Source: Minisyncoccia bacterium (lineage in GTDB: Bacteria; Patescibacteriota; Minisyncoccia; Phycocordibacterales; UBA918). Taken from it: DNA of 64,000 bases. The stretch is from positions 3,522 through 67,521 of the forward strand of contig JBGSPE010000005.1 in NCBI GenBank assembly GCA_041738755.1, written 5' to 3'. Position 1 is the first letter of the stretch; every line of letters starts with the position of its first letter. Under the pieces are notes generated by a model. The model was not told where the DNA came from. It did no database searches and saw only the letters and a program-made list of their open reading frames with translations. The translations under genes and the position numbers were made by a program. This document shows, in pieces, positions 13,775 through 36,162 of this stretch.

Positions 13775-14149
13775 ATGAAGCCAACTAGCGAAACGACATT
13801 GAAGCGCGTATACGCAATGATCTTTGCGAAGGTATATCCGATGTACATTGCGAAGGCTGAAAAGAAGGGTCGTACAAAGGAAGAGGTCGACAAGGTGATT
13901 CTTTGGCTCACGGGATACACTCAAAGCAAGCTAAATGTCCAGGTCAAGAAAGAAGTGAATTTTGAGGAATTCTTCAAACAGGCTCCGAAGCTTAACCCTT
14001 TACGAAAGCTCATCACTGGCCTGGTCTGTGGCGTTCGTGTTGAAGATGTAGAAGACAAAGTACTGCGCGAGGTGCGTTATCTCGACAAATTGATTGATGA
14101 GCTTGCTAAGGGAAGATCAATGGAGAAGATTCTGCGGAAGCCACAATAA
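13775..14149 (+). CDS. Conserved small cytosolic protein (DUF2200-like by recollection, not verified)
   Basis: A 124-aa helical protein. The [31 protein letters not shown] segment resembles the DUF2200 family as I remember it. Confidence 0.45.
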
Positions 14150-14467: not shown

Positions 14468-14926
14468 ATGGAAAAAATAACATTTAGTACAGTTATCAAC
14501 GCAGCAAAAGAAAAAGTTTGGCACACCATGCTTGACGAAGCTACGTATCAAGAGTGGACAAAACCATTTAACGAAGGTTCTCGTTATGAAGGCAAGTGGG
14601 AAGCTGGCTCAGAGATGCGCTTTATTGGTGTAGATGAAAGTGGTAGAGAGACGGGTGGTATGTACAGTAAGATCAGGGAGGCTCGACCGTACGAATTTGT
14701 CTCTATCGAGCATCTCGGAATGATCACCGAAACGGGTGAGGTTAATACCACGAGCGAATCAGTAAAAAAATGGGCACCAGCGTTTGAGAACTATACTTTT
14801 ACTGATAAACAAGGTAATACAGAAGTTTTTATTGAGATAGACGTTGCTGACGAGTGGAAAGAAATGTTTAACGACATGTGGCCGAAGGCATTGATCAAAC
14901 TCAAGGAGATTGCTGAACGAGTATAA
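14468..14926 (+). CDS. SRPBCC (AHSA1/Bet v1-like) family protein
   Basis: MEKITFSTVINAAKEKVWHTMLDEATYQEWTKPFNEGS matches the AHSA1/SRPBCC N-terminal signature. Length is 152 aa. Confidence 0.55.
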   Translation: MEKITFSTVINAAKEKVWHTMLDEATYQEWTKPFNEGSRYEGKWEAGSEMRFIGVDESGRETGGMYSKIREARPYEFVSIEHLGMITETGEVNTTSESVKKWAPAFENYTFTDKQGNTEVFIEIDVADEWKEMFNDMWPKALIKLKEIAERV

Positions 14927-14940
14927 AACTTATATTTTAA

Positions 14941-14991
14941 GCCGTACCAGTCAAGGGCGACCGAGGTGGGTTCGAGTCCTGCTGCGGCAGC
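14941..14991 (+). other. Isolated tRNA 3'-half-like fragment (T-arm plus acceptor 3' strand), a possible att-site remnant
   Basis: ...GAGGTGGGTTCGAGTCCTGCTGCGGCAGC carries a canonical GGTTCGAGTCC T-loop and stem, but no D-arm or anticodon arm can be built from the sequence upstream of it. It resembles the 3' end of tRNA-Gln at 13545..13616 (GGGTTCGAGTCC...CGGCAGC). Confidence 0.3.
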
Positions 14992-15038
14992 TAACAAGAT
15001 GGTTAGGGTAACGATATTTTAAAATTTCAAAAGGGCTT

Positions 15039-15779
15039 CTAATGGAAGTCTTCGATGAAAAAGTTACAGTTGGTCGGATTCTTAGTTTTGATTGCTGCTT
15101 CAAGCGCCGTACATGCTACTTTTTGTCCGCACATGTAGACATCTGCGTTAGAGAAATCACAGCCCGCGAGATTGTCTTGAATATATCCGTTCGGATATTT
15201 TTCTTGCCCTTTATCTGAGACAACGTAGGTGACTGTTACGTTATTGTGCTGGGCTGCTAGCTCATCGAAATAATCACGATGAAGAATTTCTGTTGCGTTA
15301 CGGTTGCCGGTAATAATGGTGAGTGTGGGAGTGTCTTCACGGAGCACGAAGTGCTCTGCTAGTGACTTGACCACCCCCGCACCAATACCAAAGCCAAACA
15401 GAAACACGTTACGACTGAGCATCTTGTCTGCGGTGTTAAGTCCTAGTGGTCCCATCAGCTTGACTGTCTTGTTAGTAAAATCCTCGTCCCATAAGAGGGG
15501 AGTGAGTTCACCACCTGGACTCAAGCGAATTGAAAGAGTGAAGGCGTCGAGGTTTTGATCGCTTGAAGATATCGAGAAGGCACGCCGAATCAGCTTGTTG
15601 TTGTGTGCAATGAACAGGTTTACAAAGGATCCGGCAATAAACGGTAGAGGTTCGCTCGGTGTGACGGTGTATTCGCGAGCAGTGGGTGAAAGTTCACGTA
15701 TCTTTGTGATGGTGCCAGTGATTTGTTTAATTGGTAACATATAGCTAACTTGTTTTAAGTGAAGACGTTTGTAAGACAT
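15039..15779 (-). CDS. FNR-family FAD/NAD(P)H oxidoreductase (Fre / NOX-dehydrogenase-like)
   Basis: FAD-binding R-x-F-S motif (RRAFSISS), GPLG, an NAD(P)-binding glycine-rich stretch (FLFGFGIGAGVV) and a C-terminal CGQ motif. The true start is probably an internal Met (MLPIKQ, about 15740), which would overlap the upstream stop by only a few nt. Confidence 0.75.
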   Translation of the reverse strand: MSYKRLHLKQVSYMLPIKQITGTITKIRELSPTAREYTVTPSEPLPFIAGSFVNLFIAHNNKLIRRAFSISSSDQNLDAFTLSIRLSPGGELTPLLWDEDFTNKTVKLMGPLGLNTADKMLSRNVFLFGFGIGAGVVKSLAEHFVLREDTPTLTIITGNRNATEILHRDYFDELAAQHNNVTVTYVVSDKGQEKYPNGYIQDNLAGCDFSNADVYMCGQKVACTALEAAIKTKNPTNCNFFIEDFH

Positions 15780-16371
15780 AGCCGTGATTACGTAACCAAG
15801 CCAGACTAGTCACCAGTGTAATAATAATGAGGTAGTAGAGTGATAGGGTCTCATTAAGAATGAAGAAGACATACAGCGCACTACCGAAAAAGTAGACGTA
15901 CGATAGGCGTTGGATGCGCTTCCAGTTTTTGCCCAACAACTGTTTAGAGAGGTTGTTGGAAGTAATAAGGAGCAGGATTGCCGAAATGTCAGCGAGGTGA
16001 GCCAGAAGAATTAAATTATTTACTGACCAATAGTCTGGAGAAATCAAACTACTTAGATAATCTGCCGGATCAACTATGACTTTGGCGAGTATAAATGACA
16101 CGATAATGGAAGCTGAAAATACACCAAAACCTTTACGTAAGATTACTAAGGGACGAATCCACGACACACCCCGGAATATGTCAGCCAATGGCCGAACGAG
16201 CATTACTAAAAAGAGGGTTACGTGGGCGGTGGCGTAAAGCCAGAAATAGGTTGTGTCGGTAAACCATCTCGGAGCGAGTACCAGTGCGGCTGGTAACGTA
16301 CTTAATATGACAATCGAGAGCGCGAGCATGGTCGCTTGCAGATGTTTGATAAAAGTGAAATACGTTTTCAT
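15745..16371 (-). CDS. Ferric-reductase-like / MsrQ(YedZ)-like polytopic membrane protein, putative heme-b carrier
   Basis: About six TM helices with conserved His in two helices (ATAHVTLFLV, LLAHLADIS). Its start overlaps the apbE stop (ATGA) and its end overlaps the FNR-like gene start. Confidence 0.55.
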   Translation of the reverse strand: MKTYFTFIKHLQATMLALSIVILSTLPAALVLAPRWFTDTTYFWLYATAHVTLFLVMLVRPLADIFRGVSWIRPLVILRKGFGVFSASIIVSFILAKVIVDPADYLSSLISPDYWSVNNLILLAHLADISAILLLITSNNLSKQLLGKNWKRIQRLSYVYFFGSALYVFFILNETLSLYYLIIITLVTSLAWLRNHGYVLQTSSLKTS

Positions 16372-17267
16372 ATAAGATTAGTTGCGGTAGTTCCGTCAGC
16401 GAAAACTACAAAATATTGATAATGATGAGTACGAGGAGGTGCGTGTTGTAGTGCTTTGGTGATGCCAACTGTTAAAAATAATTTTGTTAATCCTTCAGCC
16501 ACGGCCCCATCACGATGCACAATGGTGGTGGCCACGAGATTGTGATTGGGGTTGTCTAAGCTTGTGGCGTCAACGATGTGGTGTTTCTGACCAGTGATGG
16601 TTTGCCATGTGCGAGCATAGGTACCACTTGTTGCCAGTGCGGTGTCAGTGAGAATGGTTGGAATTTCCTCGCTGGTGATTGGATTATAGAGTTGAAAAAT
16701 GAATGGTTTGTGAACGGTATCGAAGCCATGAGTGGCTATATCGCCACCGATGTTGATGATTACACCAGCGCAAGCCGGATATGACTTTGTTATTTCGTCC
16801 GCTAGTTTCGAAGCTAGATAGCCTTTAAGTATTCCACCAAAATCGAGTCGTTGATTTGGTTTCAAGGTGACAGTGTTTGTGATGTGATTGATGTTGATGG
16901 TTTGTAGAGCGGTGTTGTAGATGGCTGGTACAAGCGTTGCAGTGGTATTTTTGAGAGTGCTAAAGGTATCTGTGTAACCAAGTGTGCGTACTTGCAAGAG
17001 TGGATTAAAAGCTCCAGCTGTCAGCTTATGCAATTCGATACTTTTTGTGAGTACAGTGACGAAGTCGTCGCTGACCACAAGCGTACCGTGCTGATTAAGA
17101 CGAGATAGCTCACTATCGGGCAAGAATCGGGAGAAACGCAGTTCGTAGTCGTGGATGGTGGTGAAGGCCTTAGCGGCGATGGCGTTAGCCATCGCCGCTT
17201 CTTCGCACACAAAAGACAGACTTACATCCGTTCCCATGTGTCGTTCTTGATACGAGTATTCATTCAT
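16368..17267 (-). CDS. apbE: FAD:protein FMN transferase (flavin transferase ApbE family)
   Basis: ApbE signature H-M-G-T near the N-terminus (ERHMGTDVSL), length 299 aa, with conserved Gly-rich and acidic C-terminal motifs (GGILKGY, ATSGTY). No signal peptide is evident. Confidence 0.85.
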   Translation of the reverse strand: MNEYSYQERHMGTDVSLSFVCEEAAMANAIAAKAFTTIHDYELRFSRFLPDSELSRLNQHGTLVVSDDFVTVLTKSIELHKLTAGAFNPLLQVRTLGYTDTFSTLKNTTATLVPAIYNTALQTININHITNTVTLKPNQRLDFGGILKGYLASKLADEITKSYPACAGVIINIGGDIATHGFDTVHKPFIFQLYNPITSEEIPTILTDTALATSGTYARTWQTITGQKHHIVDATSLDNPNHNLVATTIVHRDGAVAEGLTKLFLTVGITKALQHAPPRTHHYQYFVVFADGTTATNLI

Positions 17268-17304
17268 GTTCTATTCATGTATACAGTGCTAAAATGAATG
17301 AATT

Positions 17305-17970
17305 ATGAAGTTACTTATTGTTGAAGATACTGAAAAACTCGCCAAGTATTTGAAGCAGATGCTGGAGGAGGAATCCTACGCAGTGGATGTGGTTGGTGAT
17401 GGGGAGACTGCCGAACGTCGTATCTTGGGTGGTTCTTATGATGCAATTATTTTAGATATCATGCTTCCCGAGCAAGATGGCATTACTACATGTAAGAACG
17501 TCCGAGCTAAAGGAAACACAACTCCAATTCTTATGTTGACCGCCAAAGGTGAAGTAGAAGATCGGATTGAAGGACTCGATAGTGGGGCTGACGATTACCT
17601 CATAAAACCCTTTGCGATGGAAGAGCTTTTGGCTCGAGTCCGCGCACTCTTGCGCCGTCCGACAGTCACCGTAAATGATGAGCTGTTGGTACGAGACGTG
17701 CAGCTTAATTGCAATACTCGTGTAGTTACAGTGGCTGGTGTACCAATTAGTCTAACATTAAAAGAGTACGCGATTTTGGAGTATCTGATGCGTAATGCCG
17801 GGCAGGTGGTCAGTCGCGAGCAACTCATTGACCATTGTTGGGATTTTGCTTACTGTGCTTTTAGTAATATTACCGACGTGTACATTAAGCAGTTGCGACA
17901 CAAATTAGGAGGTGATCATGAACAATATATTAAAACTATTCGCGGGGTTGGCTACACGTTTCAAGCGTAA
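17305..17970 (+). CDS. OmpR-family two-component response regulator
   Basis: Receiver domain (MKLLIVEDTEKL ... ILDIMLP ... LMLTAKG) plus a winged-helix trans_reg_C domain (YIKTIRGVGY). Confidence 0.9.
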   Translation: MKLLIVEDTEKLAKYLKQMLEEESYAVDVVGDGETAERRILGGSYDAIILDIMLPEQDGITTCKNVRAKGNTTPILMLTAKGEVEDRIEGLDSGADDYLIKPFAMEELLARVRALLRRPTVTVNDELLVRDVQLNCNTRVVTVAGVPISLTLKEYAILEYLMRNAGQVVSREQLIDHCWDFAYCAFSNITDVYIKQLRHKLGGDHEQYIKTIRGVGYTFQA

Positions 17971-18949
17971 CGAGTTTGAACGAGCTACTTTCATACTCAC
18001 GTTTTATTACGTCTTTTCAACGGCGGTAATTTTGCTGGTGAGTAGTGTTGCAGTTTTAATTATTTTTGCACCTCCTGAAACCGAAGTGCCATTTAGAACT
18101 GAAACCGAAACGCAGATAGAGATTGAGCATGACGATTGGAGTTTGTATGAAATACGTGAGCACTTAGTGTCAGTGATTCTTATTGTTGATGTACTTATTC
18201 TTTTAATAGTCAGTATATTTGCATATTTCTTTGCCCGGAGGACACTCTTGCCGATTCAGAGGATGCACGAACGGCAGCGTCAATTCCTCGGTGATGTTGC
18301 ACACGAGTTACGAACACCGCTTTCGGTACTTCTAGCGGGAGCTGATACTGTTTTGCGACATGAACGATCCGTGCCCGAATATCAACTATTTGTAGCTGAT
18401 GTTCATGAAGAAGCGACGCGTCTTACTCGGCTATCAAACCAACTCTTACAACTTCTTAAAGCTGGCGAAATAGAAATGGGTGAACCGAGTAATATACTGG
18501 TGTCAGTCGTATTAAGTCAGGAGATACGACGCTTTACTCCCTATGCAACTGAGCGAGATATTACCCTTGCGAGTGACATAATGCCTGGATTGACCACGTT
18601 TACACACCAAGATGCTCTCATTGAGATAGTACAAAATCTCCTCAAAAATGCCATTGATTATAGTAATCCTGGAGATAGTGTCACACTCTCGCTTGGTACT
18701 ACGCAAACCTCATTAGTGATTACAGTGGTTGACACAGGATCTGGTATTGACGCAAGTAAACAAAAAATGATATTTGATCGTTTTACAAAAGTAGATACTG
18801 CTCGCACACAGGGTAGTGACAGTGGTGCGGGGCTAGGGCTAGCAATCGTAAAAGCCTTAGTCAACAAGCTCGGTGGAGAGCTGGCTCTTAAAAGTGAACC
18901 AGGTATTGGTACAGAAGTGATAGTGATGCTACCTGTAGAGCATTCATAA
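17912..18949 (+). CDS. Sensor histidine kinase (two TM helices, HisKA, HATPase_c)
   Basis: H-box HELRTPLS, with N, G1 and G2 boxes (NLLKNAIDYS, DTGSGI, GAGLGLAIV). It overlaps the regulator gene by about 59 nt in another frame, so the start is uncertain. Confidence 0.85.
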   Translation: MIMNNILKLFAGLATRFKRNEFERATFILTFYYVFSTAVILLVSSVAVLIIFAPPETEVPFRTETETQIEIEHDDWSLYEIREHLVSVILIVDVLILLIVSIFAYFFARRTLLPIQRMHERQRQFLGDVAHELRTPLSVLLAGADTVLRHERSVPEYQLFVADVHEEATRLTRLSNQLLQLLKAGEIEMGEPSNILVSVVLSQEIRRFTPYATERDITLASDIMPGLTTFTHQDALIEIVQNLLKNAIDYSNPGDSVTLSLGTTQTSLVITVVDTGSGIDASKQKMIFDRFTKVDTARTQGSDSGAGLGLAIVKALVNKLGGELALKSEPGIGTEVIVMLPVEHS

Positions 18950-19004: not shown

Positions 19005-19175
19005 ATGGCTCAATATGTTTGTTTAGAATGTGGCTGGATTTATGATGAAGTACTCGGTGATCCAAGTCGTGGCTACCCAGCGGGCACAAAGTGGGAAGAT
19101 TTACCTAATGATTTTAAATGTGCCGAATGTGAGACGATTAAAGGCGACACGCATATGTGGCAGAGGTTAGATTAG
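19005..19175 (+). CDS. Rubredoxin (56 aa; absent from the ORF track because it is under 60 aa)
   Basis: MAQYVCLECGWIYDEVLGDPSRGYPAGTKWEDLPNDFKCAECETIKGDTHMWQRLD carries the CxxCG...CxxC rubredoxin iron site with the conserved Y/W/F core. Confidence 0.75.
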   Translation: MAQYVCLECGWIYDEVLGDPSRGYPAGTKWEDLPNDFKCAECETIKGDTHMWQRLD

Positions 19176-19185
19176 TTGATAAATT

Positions 19186-19692
19186 ATGAAAAAAAATATT
19201 AGAAATGTAGTCCTTACCTTCGGTTTGATTACGGTAGTTGCTGTTGGCACTGCTCAGTTCAATATGAAGCAAGAAGCAGCTGCTGATCCCTTGTCTAAAA
19301 TATATGAAGTGGAGATGGAAAAGGCAGAAGAAGATTTGCGAGAGGTTCTAGCTGACCGACTTACCCTGCAGAGAAATGAAGTTGAAAATATTCAGGCATT
19401 AGAAAAAGTAAGATTGTTAGAAGAAGTAGAAATCGAAAAAGCGGTAGAAGCCGCAGCAATCTCGACAGCAAAAGATGCCTCTGCACGTCAGGCAGCAATC
19501 GAAGCTGCAGCTGAGGCAGACGCTAGACGTCAGGCTGCTGCAGTCGCTGCTCAGAAGGCAGATCAAGAGAAGGCAAATGAACTAGCTGCACAACAAGCAG
19601 CTGAAGCAAAAGCCGCTGAGATCGCTGCACAACAGGCTGCCGATTTGGCGGCGGCCGCACAAAGGGATGCTCGTCGATCACGTGCTAGTTAG
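19186..19692 (+). CDS. Membrane-anchored Ala/Gln/Glu-rich coiled-coil protein (TolA-like low complexity)
   Basis: An N-terminal TM helix, then AAQQAAEAKAAEIAAQQAADLAAAAQRDARR-type repeats. Confidence 0.5.
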   Translation: MKKNIRNVVLTFGLITVVAVGTAQFNMKQEAAADPLSKIYEVEMEKAEEDLREVLADRLTLQRNEVENIQALEKVRLLEEVEIEKAVEAAAISTAKDASARQAAIEAAAEADARRQAAAVAAQKADQEKANELAAQQAAEAKAAEIAAQQAADLAAAAQRDARRSRAS

Positions 19693-20055: not shown

Positions 20056-20613
20056 TTGTGCGATACACTAGGGTCTAACATTTATTTTATGCACGTATCA
20101 TATTTTGAGGTAACCGTACCAGTTTTTAAGAAGAATCTCTTAATTGCTAAAGCCTTATTACAGAAAGGTCTTGAACACGCACTTCTGAGTGGCATTACAG
20201 AGGCGGTGTTTTTAGATCAGCGACTCGCTCCTGACATGTTTCCGCTCTTAAAGCAGGTGCAGATTGTGACTGATAGCGCGAAGGGTGCTAGTGCTCGCTT
20301 GGCAGGTGTCCAGGCACCAGCAATTGCTGATACAGAGACAACAGTTGCTGAACTTGTAGCTCGGATTGATACTGTCATCGCGTATCTTGATACGTTTACG
20401 CCCGACCAGTTTGAGCAAGCAGCTGAGCGAAAAATTGAACTGCCATATATTCCTGGTATGTACCAAACAGGTGCAGATTATCTGGTTGATTTTGTGCTGC
20501 CAAACTTTTTCTTCCATATGTCTATAATTTACGGATTGATTCGCTCACAAGGTGTGTCGCTCGGTAAGATGGATTTCTTGGGTAGTTTGAAATTACACCC
20601 TTTGGATTCGTAA
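20056..20613 (+). CDS. DUF1993 family protein
   Basis: Contains the RLAPDMFPLLKQVQIVTDSAKGASARLAG segment characteristic of DUF1993 helical-bundle proteins. The likely start is the internal Met at 20089. Confidence 0.55.
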   Translation: MCDTLGSNIYFMHVSYFEVTVPVFKKNLLIAKALLQKGLEHALLSGITEAVFLDQRLAPDMFPLLKQVQIVTDSAKGASARLAGVQAPAIADTETTVAELVARIDTVIAYLDTFTPDQFEQAAERKIELPYIPGMYQTGADYLVDFVLPNFFFHMSIIYGLIRSQGVSLGKMDFLGSLKLHPLDS

Positions 20614-35460: not shown

Positions 35461-36162
35461 ATGGTAAACTATTGCGGTATGAAAAATCCATGGATAATTG
35501 TAGGGGTAATCACTGTTGTATTGTTTGGCGGAGCTATCTGGTATTCCGGAGTAAGTGCTGAACGAAATAATGAGGGAGTGACGGTCACTGAACACATTAA
35601 GGGCAATCCAGACGCCAGTGTTGTGCTGGTCGAGTATAGCGACTTTCAGTGTCCAGCCTGTGCAGCATTTCAACCAGCCATTGAAGAAGTGCTGTCTCTC
35701 TACGGTGACCAGCTCCGTTTTGAGTACAAACACTTTCCACTACCAATTCACCCTTCAGCTATTCCCGCCGGTGTAGCAGCCGAAGCAGCCGGTCAGCAAG
35801 GGAAGTTTTTTGAGTACCATGATGTCTTGTTTGCTAATCAACCCACCTGGTCACAATCAGTTGCACCGCAAGCGTTATTTATTCAGTATGCACAAGAGTT
35901 AGGGCTAGATATGGATAGGTTCCGTCGTCACATCAATTCAACTATTTTACGAGACGAAGTCCGTAATGGAATGAACGAGGGTCGTGAATTAGGTATTACC
36001 GGAACCCCAACCTTCTTTTTGAACGGGGAACGAATGGAGATAGTCACTTACGAAGACTTTATCAACCAAATTGCTACCGCAATCAATCCAACCAGTGGTG
36101 CAAGTACTACCGTAGGAGCACCTGAAGCTGCACTTGAGACCGATATCCGCTTTGGACTATAG
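35461..36162 (+). CDS. DsbA/BdbD-like thiol:disulfide oxidoreductase (second paralog), membrane anchored
   Basis: Active site CPAC (EYSDFQCPACAAF) and a C-terminal GTPTFFLNG cis-Pro loop. The start is taken at the first ATG beyond the divergent methyltransferase gene. The ORF track's 35290 start overlaps that gene. Confidence 0.75.
   Translation: MVNYCGMKNPWIIVGVITVVLFGGAIWYSGVSAERNNEGVTVTEHIKGNPDASVVLVEYSDFQCPACAAFQPAIEEVLSLYGDQLRFEYKHFPLPIHPSAIPAGVAAEAAGQQGKFFEYHDVLFANQPTWSQSVAPQALFIQYAQELGLDMDRFRRHINSTILRDEVRNGMNEGRELGITGTPTFFLNGERMEIVTYEDFINQIATAINPTSGASTTVGAPEAALETDIRFGL

Follow-up and report, generated by a model that had tools for sequence, protein, structure and literature searches.

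A 64-kb stretch of DNA from a Minisyncoccia bacterium (contig JBGSPE010000005.1; hereafter the window, in whose numbering all coordinates are given unless a locus is named) encodes a predicted six-helix membrane protein with a ferric reductase domain (FRD), next to an ApbE-family flavin transferase and an FNR-type reductase. The flavin pocket known from MsrQ and STEAP is conserved in this transmembrane (TM) protein, and the two histidines that ligate heme in Escherichia coli MsrQ are replaced. A first-pass annotation of the window had described these three genes as a split NOX-like or MsrQ-Fre-like unit with its own flavin transferase; the module is larger than that, and a rubredoxin gene and the gene for a low-complexity protein with a conserved C-terminal tail also belong to it. 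As the best explanation overall we propose, tentatively and with a confidence just short of even, that five functional genes and a two-component regulator form a module conserved in the Candidate Phyla Radiation (CPR; Patescibacteria), and that this module is a CPR-specific, flavin-centered variant of the MsrQ-like flavinylation systems. Statements below that go beyond sequence, synteny, and predicted fold are hypotheses.

Flavin pocket and heme-ligand positions of the membrane protein

The TM protein (208 residues; 15745-16371, minus strand) is predicted to contain six hydrophobic helices, as the first-pass annotation had it, and 14 Lys and Arg residues in the predicted cytoplasmic segments versus 1 in the outer loops place the N terminus inside the cell. 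Its predicted fold is the six-TM FRD fold of the MsrQ/STEAP/NOX superfamily. Pfam returned no match, PF01794 being absent even at E ≤ 1, and the match to the NCBIfam MsrQ model (NF003831) was sub-threshold (E = 9.5e-05, 22 bits versus a cut-off of 130).

E. coli MsrQ is a flavocytochrome whose single outer heme b has H91 and H164 as ligands and whose one FMN, on the cytoplasmic side, is reduced by Fre and bound at a site formed by R77, R78, L131, S135, W147, and H151; R77 and R78 are essential for FMN binding, and the STEAP counterparts of H151 and R78 are Gln and Lys, respectively (PMC12525009). We set the corresponding positions in the window protein by alignment with E. coli MsrQ and counted residue conservation in 121 close homologues. 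All six flavin-pocket positions are kept, each in 121/121 sequences: R79 and K80 (16132-16137; MsrQ R77/R78), L134 (15970-15972; MsrQ L131), and S138, W150, and Q154, which lie inside the segment TSNNLSKQLLGKNWKRIQ (residues 137-154; 15910-15963) that runs from the cytoplasmic end of TM4 to the start of TM5 (these codons and those named below are on the minus strand). Q154 and K80 are the STEAP variants of the MsrQ-type pocket. The residues point to a conserved, putative flavin site of the MsrQ/STEAP type.

In contrast, the two MsrQ heme ligands are replaced by F93 in TM3 (H91 position; 16093-16095; 118/121) and Y167 in TM5 (H164 position; 15871-15873; 120/121). The first-pass annotation had called the protein heme-type on account of conserved histidines in two helices. 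Such histidines do exist, namely H50 in TM2 (16222-16224; 118/121) and H125 in TM4 (15997-15999; 121/121), but they do not sit in the heme-ligating helices TM3 and TM5, where no bis-His pair is present, and they are not kept across the subfamily; the reading of the protein as a heme conduit is weakened to that extent. H50 is specific to the closest clade: position 50 is Leu, Phe, or Val in near relatives (P0122 and P0127-P0129) and Trp elsewhere. Position 125 is Arg in many relatives and His, Arg, or Lys overall, position 128 (D128 here; 15988-15990; 121/121) is Asp or Glu, and Y167 varies in the wider family.

A census of twelve key columns in family representatives, further homologues, three Gracilibacteria fusion proteins, and E. 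coli MsrQ revealed two classes. Class A, which includes E. coli MsrQ and is detected by PF01794, has hydrophobic residues at 125 and 128 and His at both heme-ligand columns, 93 and 167. In class B, to which the window protein belongs, neither of these columns holds His, and the mark of the class is an [H/R/K]125-x-x-[D/E]128 pair in TM4, here H125 and its partner D128. The flavin-pocket residues are kept in class A and class B alike. On the evidence of these alignments class B as a whole lacks a conserved bis-His heme site, and the window protein probably carries no ordinary bis-His heme b.

Homologues of the TM protein numbered 665 at E ≤ 1e-3, and among the matches listed all named ones are from CPR/Patescibacteria; none of the 120 homologues listed, of the 665, carries a precomputed Pfam domain, and PF01794 matches more distant class-A relatives. 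In a full-database profile search the family comprised 264 clusters at 50% identity. CPR bacteria are generally regarded as nearly devoid of membrane redox machinery, and the widespread module would be a main candidate for moving reducing power to or across their membrane.

Gene order, proposed electron carriers, and a candidate ApbE acceptor

Three open reading frames (ORFs) on the minus strand, at 16368-17267 (299 residues), 15745-16371 (208 residues), and 15039-15779 (246 residues in the longest form), encode the ApbE, six-TM, and FNR-type proteins, whose identities were correctly assigned at first pass, and the motifs quoted for them (HMGT, RAFSIS, GFGIGAG, and CGQ) are all found in the encoded proteins. 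An ATGA overlap joins the ApbE stop to the TM start, as had been noted, and the same overlap recurs in at least nine related loci. The overlap described between the TM stop and the FNR start holds for the longest ORF only (35 nt) and not for the likely start, Met14 (ATG at 15740), where the FNR-like homologues begin and which lies 4 nt past the TM stop codon. Among the related loci (labeled L001-L035; L025/26 is the complete Ca. Kaiserbacteria genome CP060229.1), the ApbE-TM-FNR order is kept in 11 CPR loci (L001-L003, L005-L011, and L025/26), while in L004 and L012 the contig stops short of the FNR position; across L001-L012 the order is retained as the identity of the TM protein falls from 77% to 37%. 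Since each of 11 independent loci has TM and FNR as two ORFs, a frameshift artefact at their junction is excluded and the split is genuine.

The gene directly upstream of the TM-domain gene encodes ApbE in 16 of the 19 class-B loci (L001-L012, L025/26, L035, L014, and L018) and in two of the eight class-A loci (L028 and L032). We therefore rejected a strict tracking of ApbE adjacency with loss of the heme ligands: adjacency is enriched in class B, yet L028 and L032 are class A. In another class-A locus, L031, the relative adjoins a molybdoenzyme gene, like an ordinary MsrPQ pair. A further class-A relative, in L029 (5611-8833 of that locus), lies among a Heavy_Cys_CGP protein, a 407-residue protein, and a DsbA-like protein; the 407-residue protein has a thioredoxin-like CxxC and a multi-TM region, has no Pfam match, and was read as CcdA/DsbD-like. 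This context hints that, in other CPR lineages, the TM family may be linked to thiol-disulfide chemistry of the envelope.

The FNR/Fre-type NAD(P)H oxidoreductase (233 residues from Met14; 15039-15740, minus strand, the longest ORF reaching 15779) matched FAD_binding_6 (E = 3e-08) and NAD_binding_1 (E = 1.6e-10), which bears out its assignment as an FNR-type dehydrogenase; NAD_binding_6 gave E = 0.11. It is collinear with Fre (NF005963) over its whole length (residues 18-241 versus 2-226 of 233), with a score of 57.6 bits versus a cut-off of 230; the BenC reductase domain scores above Fre, and architecture and length agree with those of Fre, an FNR fold of about 233 residues without an Fe-S domain. 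Clade-specific motifs of the FNR-like proteins are GPLG[LIV]NT[AS]DK and GFG[IV]G[AV][GS]. By the predicted fold of the TM protein and this collinearity with Fre, the comparison with a NOX/FRE or MsrQ-Fre-like pair made as separate polypeptides was right in kind.

The proposed one-electron carrier is a rubredoxin of 56 residues (19005-19175, plus strand; Pfam PF00301, E = 4.3e-16, 59.1 bits versus a cut-off of 23) with two CxxC motifs. A rubredoxin gene adjoins the module in L001-L011 and L025/26, which is every module locus with upstream sequence, and it stands directly beside ApbE in loci without the two-component genes; one is also present in the class-A locus L032. In distant relatives the parts are joined in single chains, as TM-Rubredoxin-FNR (P0223 and P0237), Fer4_13-FNR-TM (P0134, P0141, and the Gracilibacteria loci), TM-Fer4-FNR (P0240), and FMN_red-TM (P0187). 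These fusions argue for a path from NAD(P)H through FAD and then rubredoxin or ferredoxin to the TM domain. The FNR-like protein and the rubredoxin are located in the cytosol. A 749-residue member (P0306) of the 90%-identity cluster of the 56-residue rubredoxin could be a fusion or a gene-calling artefact.

The ApbE-family FAD:protein FMN transferase (299 residues; 16368-17267, minus strand) matched PF02424 far above the cut-off (E = 5.7e-42, 144.5 bits versus 25.6, residues 11-277 covered), and its catalytic motifs are intact, in keeping with the first-pass assignment. It aligns with Vibrio cholerae ApbE (6nxi), and its own His corresponds to the residue mutated in 6nxj (H257G). In the triad Ser241-His257-Asp285 (V. 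cholerae numbering), the Ser (TSGTY) and the His (HHIVD) are kept, while at the third position the window protein has Glu, and its relatives have either Glu or Asp; the metal/FAD motifs GGD and LDFGG are kept as well. Across 15 aligned ApbE relatives, FSRF..SELS.LN, LDFGG..KG, NxGGD, TSG[TS]Y.R, and H[IL][IV]D are conserved, the Phe of FSRF presumably standing at the position of E. coli Tyr60. All 15 of these relatives lack a signal peptide and begin directly at the ApbE domain. No hydrophobic segment is predicted in the window ApbE and, since an in-frame stop two codons upstream of its start leaves no room for a signal peptide, the enzyme is predicted to be cytosolic; it is most likely an active cytosolic flavin transferase. 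Relatives of about 500 residues, considered as ApbE-TM fusions, were rejected as such because Pfam shows them to be Fer4-FNR-TM.

Cytosolic ApbE enzymes are known from Klebsiella pneumoniae and, as domains fused to fumarate reductases, from trypanosomatids, and they modify FMN_bind domains of soluble reductases at D-x-x-[S/T]-G-A-T (reviewed in PMC12052999). The window ApbE is like them in having no secretion signal and an adjacent or fused partner. It is unlike them in that their partner is a canonical FMN_bind domain in a soluble reductase, whereas this module has no FMN_bind domain, and ApbE is partnered with membrane proteins. The absence of an FMN_bind partner and of a canonical flavinylation motif, already noted at first pass, was upheld for the window and L001-L012, and the motif D-x-x-[S/T]-G-A-[S/T] occurs neither in the 64-kb window nor in L001-L023. 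The loose form [ST]GA[ST] was found in just two real genes of the window, those for topoisomerase I and for the extension of a DsbA-like protein, which is chance level and led us to reject it. The DsbA-like protein (approximately 35480-36162, plus strand; Thioredoxin_4, E = 7e-30) is membrane-anchored and has a C-terminal extension with NPTSGAS, which agrees with the canonical ApbE motif at 6/7 positions; in L029 and L035 the DsbA-like proteins have no such extension.

The candidate acceptor site lies at the end of a signal-anchored, low-complexity protein of 168 residues (19186-19692, plus strand), which we call the tail or tether protein; it has one N-terminal hydrophobic segment, belongs to no Pfam family, and ends in RRSRAS-COOH (19672-19689, plus strand; consensus R-x-[S/T]-[R/K]-A-S at the protein end). 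A homologue search with this protein found the query alone, since low-complexity words filled the list of candidates. Wherever the TM gene of a class-B module locus is separate, however, a counterpart adjoins rubredoxin or ApbE. These counterparts are 117 to 186 residues long, with hypervariable, unalignable middles rich in Ala, Gln, and Glu or in Pro, and the class-B members end in RRSRAS, RQSRAS, RSSRAS, RRTRAS, RTTRAS, RKTRAS, or RQSKAS, while that of L032 (class A) ends in ETRSS. When we scanned the ORFs of at least 60 residues in the window and all loci (n = 1435), [ST][RK][AS][ST] stood at the C terminus of 19, and 17 of the 19 were the tail protein, one per module locus. Known ApbE acceptor sites, D-x-x-[S/T]-G-A-[S/T], receive FMN on their last residue, and a tag of seven residues is enough, working best when it is terminal. 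Of the four core positions of [S/T]-G-A-[S/T] the tail agrees at three, its would-be acceptor Ser is the very last residue, and in these features it resembles a flavin-attachment site.

Two Gracilibacteria loci, which use genetic code 25, have a different candidate. Their order is an FMN_bind-like lipoprotein (3595-4026 in L014 and 3592-4029 in L018), then an ApbE without signal peptide, then a Fer4-FNR-TM fusion. The lipoproteins match FMN_bind weakly (E = 5e-4 and 1.8e-3) and carry an SGAS or AGAS motif; a coiled-coil neighbor in L014 is without the [S/T]-[R/K]-A-S tail, and a tblastn search with the lipoprotein revealed no counterpart in the window or L001-L012. It would thus seem that the module regularly includes a small flavin carrier, which takes one of two forms, the tail protein or the lipoprotein.

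Proposed electron path and alternative explanations

We hypothesize that the cytoplasmic FNR/Fre-type reductase would draw electrons from NAD(P)H and that rubredoxin would pass them on singly, to arrive at a flavin in the cytoplasm-facing pocket of the TM protein, a pocket that holds FMN in E. coli MsrQ and FAD in STEAP. Because both canonical heme-ligating histidines are lost, the path beyond this inner flavin probably bypasses an ordinary bis-His heme b. The cytosolic ApbE would link FMN covalently to a protein, the likeliest acceptor being the terminal Ser of the tail protein; in Gracilibacteria (L014 and L018) the FMN_bind-like lipoprotein, with SGAS or AGAS, would accept FMN instead. The tethered FMN would be a mobile or outer redox group, standing in for the missing heme. 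In this scheme we infer the electron path and its direction, the terminal acceptor, the flavin occupancy, the flavinylation target, and the absence of heme. A bolder form, which we consider unlikely, is a heme-free transmembrane conduit in which FMN placed on the last tail residue before export would replace the outer heme, and the long hypervariable protein would let the flavin dock in an acidic outer pocket of the TM protein and swing out to acceptors beyond the cell wall.

Several observations weigh against the flavin-centered explanation. Transmembrane electron transfer is left unexplained if there is no outer redox center, and a heme ligated by Tyr167 or by H50/H125 is possible in the closest clade. 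The Foldseek match to STEAP1 is marginal (E = 0.08). The tail has Arg or Lys for the canonical Gly and is without the Asp at position -6. By the positive-inside rule the tail is predicted to be outside the cell and ApbE inside, so that flavinylation would have to precede export; an exported lipoprotein and a cytosolic ApbE clash in Gracilibacteria too, and the topology conflict is therefore general and not specific to the tail hypothesis. Three class-B loci that form one syntenic group of fusions (L013, L016, and L017) have no adjacent ApbE, and in L028 ApbE adjoins the TM gene, but there is neither a tail protein nor an FMN_bind gene. Finally, an FMN_bind substrate could be encoded elsewhere in the genome, outside the 64 kb covered.

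One alternative, which seems doubtful to us, is that ApbE flavinylates the TM protein itself, for example at Ser142 of the TSNxxS loop, one turn below Ser138 of the flavin pocket. The FMN of this cytoplasmic pocket would then be covalent and be reduced by the Fre-like protein or rubredoxin, and the tether would be an unrelated envelope or regulatory protein. In favor of this, ApbE directly precedes the TM-domain gene, in many cases overlapping it by 4 nt, and does so for free, Fer4-FNR-fused, and heme-type TM domains alike; the TM protein is the only candidate ApbE partner in L028; and ApbE and the flavin pocket are both on the cytoplasmic side. Residue 142 is Ser in 120/121 close homologues and in all ApbE-adjacent TM proteins inspected, and Met in E. 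coli MsrQ, in which FMN is non-covalent; flavinylation sites are known from the literature to have evolved at non-covalent flavin sites. However, TSNNLSK is unlike [S/T]-G-A-[S/T], S142 is also found in most class-A relatives without a nearby ApbE, and the invariant tether tail and its swap for an FMN_bind-like lipoprotein in Gracilibacteria would be unaccounted for.

Still less likely is an ordinary MsrQ-like extracytosolic system, in which a b-type cytochrome with H50/H125 or Y167 (plus H125) as ligands would pass NAD(P)H electrons by way of heme to FMN outside the cell, the secreted FMN_bind substrate being encoded elsewhere in the genome. Clusters of an MsrQ-like protein, an NAD-binding domain, and apbE are a published flavinylation class (Meheust et al. 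2021, eLife, PMC8238504; mSystems 2024, PMC11334425) with a PF01794 match, two heme sites, a signal peptide on ApbE or FMN_bind, and an FMN_bind gene, mostly in Actinobacteria (PMC8238504). The window locus is like this class in the clustering of apbE with an MsrQ-family TM protein and an NAD-binding FNR domain, where a flavinylated partner is expected. It is unlike it in that there is no PF01794 match, no canonical heme ligands, no ApbE signal peptide, and no FMN_bind gene, and it has rubredoxin and the tail protein instead. In the closest clade H125, D128, and Y167 show next to no variation and H50 little (118/121), and helical periodicity would place them on conserved, presumably cavity-facing stripes of TM2, TM4, and TM5; the FMN_bind-like lipoprotein of the Gracilibacteria clusters and the class-A relatives with canonical His in the same superphylum, two of them beside ApbE, are also in favor of such a system. 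Against it stand the replacements of H50, of H125 (Arg in many class-B proteins), and of Y167 described above, the absence of a signal peptide from ApbE in 15/15 relatives, the absence of an FMN_bind gene or canonical motif from the window and L001-L012, and the failure of PF01794 to detect the TM protein. The published survey dropped proteins without signal peptides and found extracytosolic flavinylation components to be strikingly under-represented in CPR (PMC8238504), in part owing to its signal-peptide and Pfam requirements. Since it required both a PF01794 match and signal peptides, it would have missed this gene set.

A cytoplasm-side, membrane-bound, NAD(P)H/rubredoxin-dependent reductase of some diffusible or membrane-soluble oxidant (O2, peroxides, or scavenged quinone, for example), serving a stress response under the two-component system without any transmembrane transfer, is less probable again. 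Anaerobes typically use rubredoxin as an electron carrier under oxidative stress. With both heme ligands lost there is no obvious outer redox center, and regulator genes and conserved repeat boxes are adjacent, just as E. coli msrPQ lies beside hprRS; ubiquinone bound by E. coli MsrQ is a possible electron acceptor according to the literature. This explanation leaves ApbE and the tail protein unexplained, as well as the FMN_bind-like lipoprotein that Gracilibacteria have outside the cytoplasm, and the invariance of the outer-leaflet residues H125, D128, Y167, Y114, and W115 speaks for a functional outer half. Very improbable is that the ApbE homologue is an Ftp-type FAD pyrophosphatase, as Treponema pallidum Ftp is (PMC4767422), or an FMN chaperone that feeds the MsrQ-like pocket non-covalently: the window is indeed without a canonical acceptor motif, but an aromatic residue (the F of FSRF, which aligns with the Y of V. 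cholerae MSTY) is kept at what is presumably the isoalloxazine-contacting position of FAD-binding or transferase-type Ftps, and the catalytic His and Ser are conserved.

The flavin-centered explanation can also be set against the well-studied FRD enzymes. The module shares with E. coli MsrQ-Fre, an established NOX-like system of two components, the six-TM FRD fold, a separate Fre-sized FNR reductase, the N-in topology, an adjacent two-component regulator, and the six FMN-pocket positions, with Gln here at the H151 and Lys at the R78 position. In contrast to MsrQ, it has Phe and Tyr in place of the heme ligands H91 and H164 and adds ApbE, rubredoxin, and the tail protein, and its scores are far under both the MsrQ and the Fre equivalog cut-offs. 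MsrP (Oxidored_molyb) was absent from the module loci L025, L026, L032, and L035; the window as a whole was not scanned with Pfam for Oxidored_molyb. STEAP, the best structural match, likewise has one inner-leaflet flavin in its FRD, with Gln and Lys at the MsrQ H151 and R78 positions, but it is eukaryotic, keeps the outer bis-His heme, and has a fused N-terminal NADPH-binding dehydrogenase domain. NOX and SpNOX resemble the module in pairing an FRD membrane domain with an FNR-type dehydrogenase, as do the fused single-chain relatives of the window protein; NOX enzymes, however, are built with four His, two hemes, and FAD_binding_8/NAD_binding_6 domains and work without a relay through Fe-S or rubredoxin, and the module differs in each of these respects. 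Judged by its sequence, the locus falls outside MsrQ, NOX, FRE, and the published flavinylation class as these are defined and has in common with them the fold and the flavin pocket.

New with respect to the flavinylation literature searched are FRD proteins without a bis-His site, their link to a cytosolic ApbE and rubredoxin, and the protein with the conserved C-terminal [S/T]-[R/K]-A-S tail. For the NOX/STEAP/MsrQ field, a natural subfamily that retains the flavin site but has the bis-His pair replaced tests which parts are needed for electron transfer. Should the bolder form of the proposal prove correct, ApbE would have a new kind of substrate, a bare terminal peptide with Arg for Gly, the FRD would have a new cofactor set, and the modification would take place before secretion; a natural terminal acceptor peptide of differing consensus and a cytosolic ApbE that serves it would also widen the substrate range of ApbE and its use in flavin tagging.

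Regulatory genes and flanking sequence

Divergent from the ApbE gene are the genes for an OmpR-type response regulator (17305-17970, plus strand), which adjoins the module in seven loci and whose L025 orthologue has Response_reg and Trans_reg_C domains, and for a membrane histidine kinase (17912-18949, plus strand; HisKA/HATPase_c) with two main hydrophobic segments. The 37-nt intergenic region between the ApbE and response-regulator genes (17268-17304) contains TTCAT/ATGAA repeats, in which ATTCATTCAT and ATGAATAGAACATGAATGAAT flank a TGTATACA core. Its sequence is conserved and its length identical in L001, L002, L003, and L011 (five loci including the window), and TTCAT repeats are also found in the longer gaps of L005, L010, and L025. 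The region probably holds response-regulator boxes and promoters, with a very short or absent 5' leader. In E. coli K-12 (L024, 2038152-2041118) msrPQ adjoins the hprRS two-component genes in the same layout as the CPR module, and control of the module by an envelope or oxidative signal is plausible.

Genes flanking the module encode a DUF1993 protein (20056-20613), a DUF2200 protein (13775-14149), and an AHSA1/SRPBCC-like protein (14468-14926); they are not kept beside the module elsewhere, save for scattered matches to DUF2200 and to a 103-residue membrane protein. Just downstream of the FNR-like gene, at 14941-14993 (plus strand), is a string that resembles the 3' half of a tRNA, with T-arm and acceptor (GGTTCGAGTCCTGCTGCGGCAGC). 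It was called as a tRNA neither by ARAGORN nor by Rfam at E ≤ 0.1 and may be a decayed tRNA or the remnant of an integration site.

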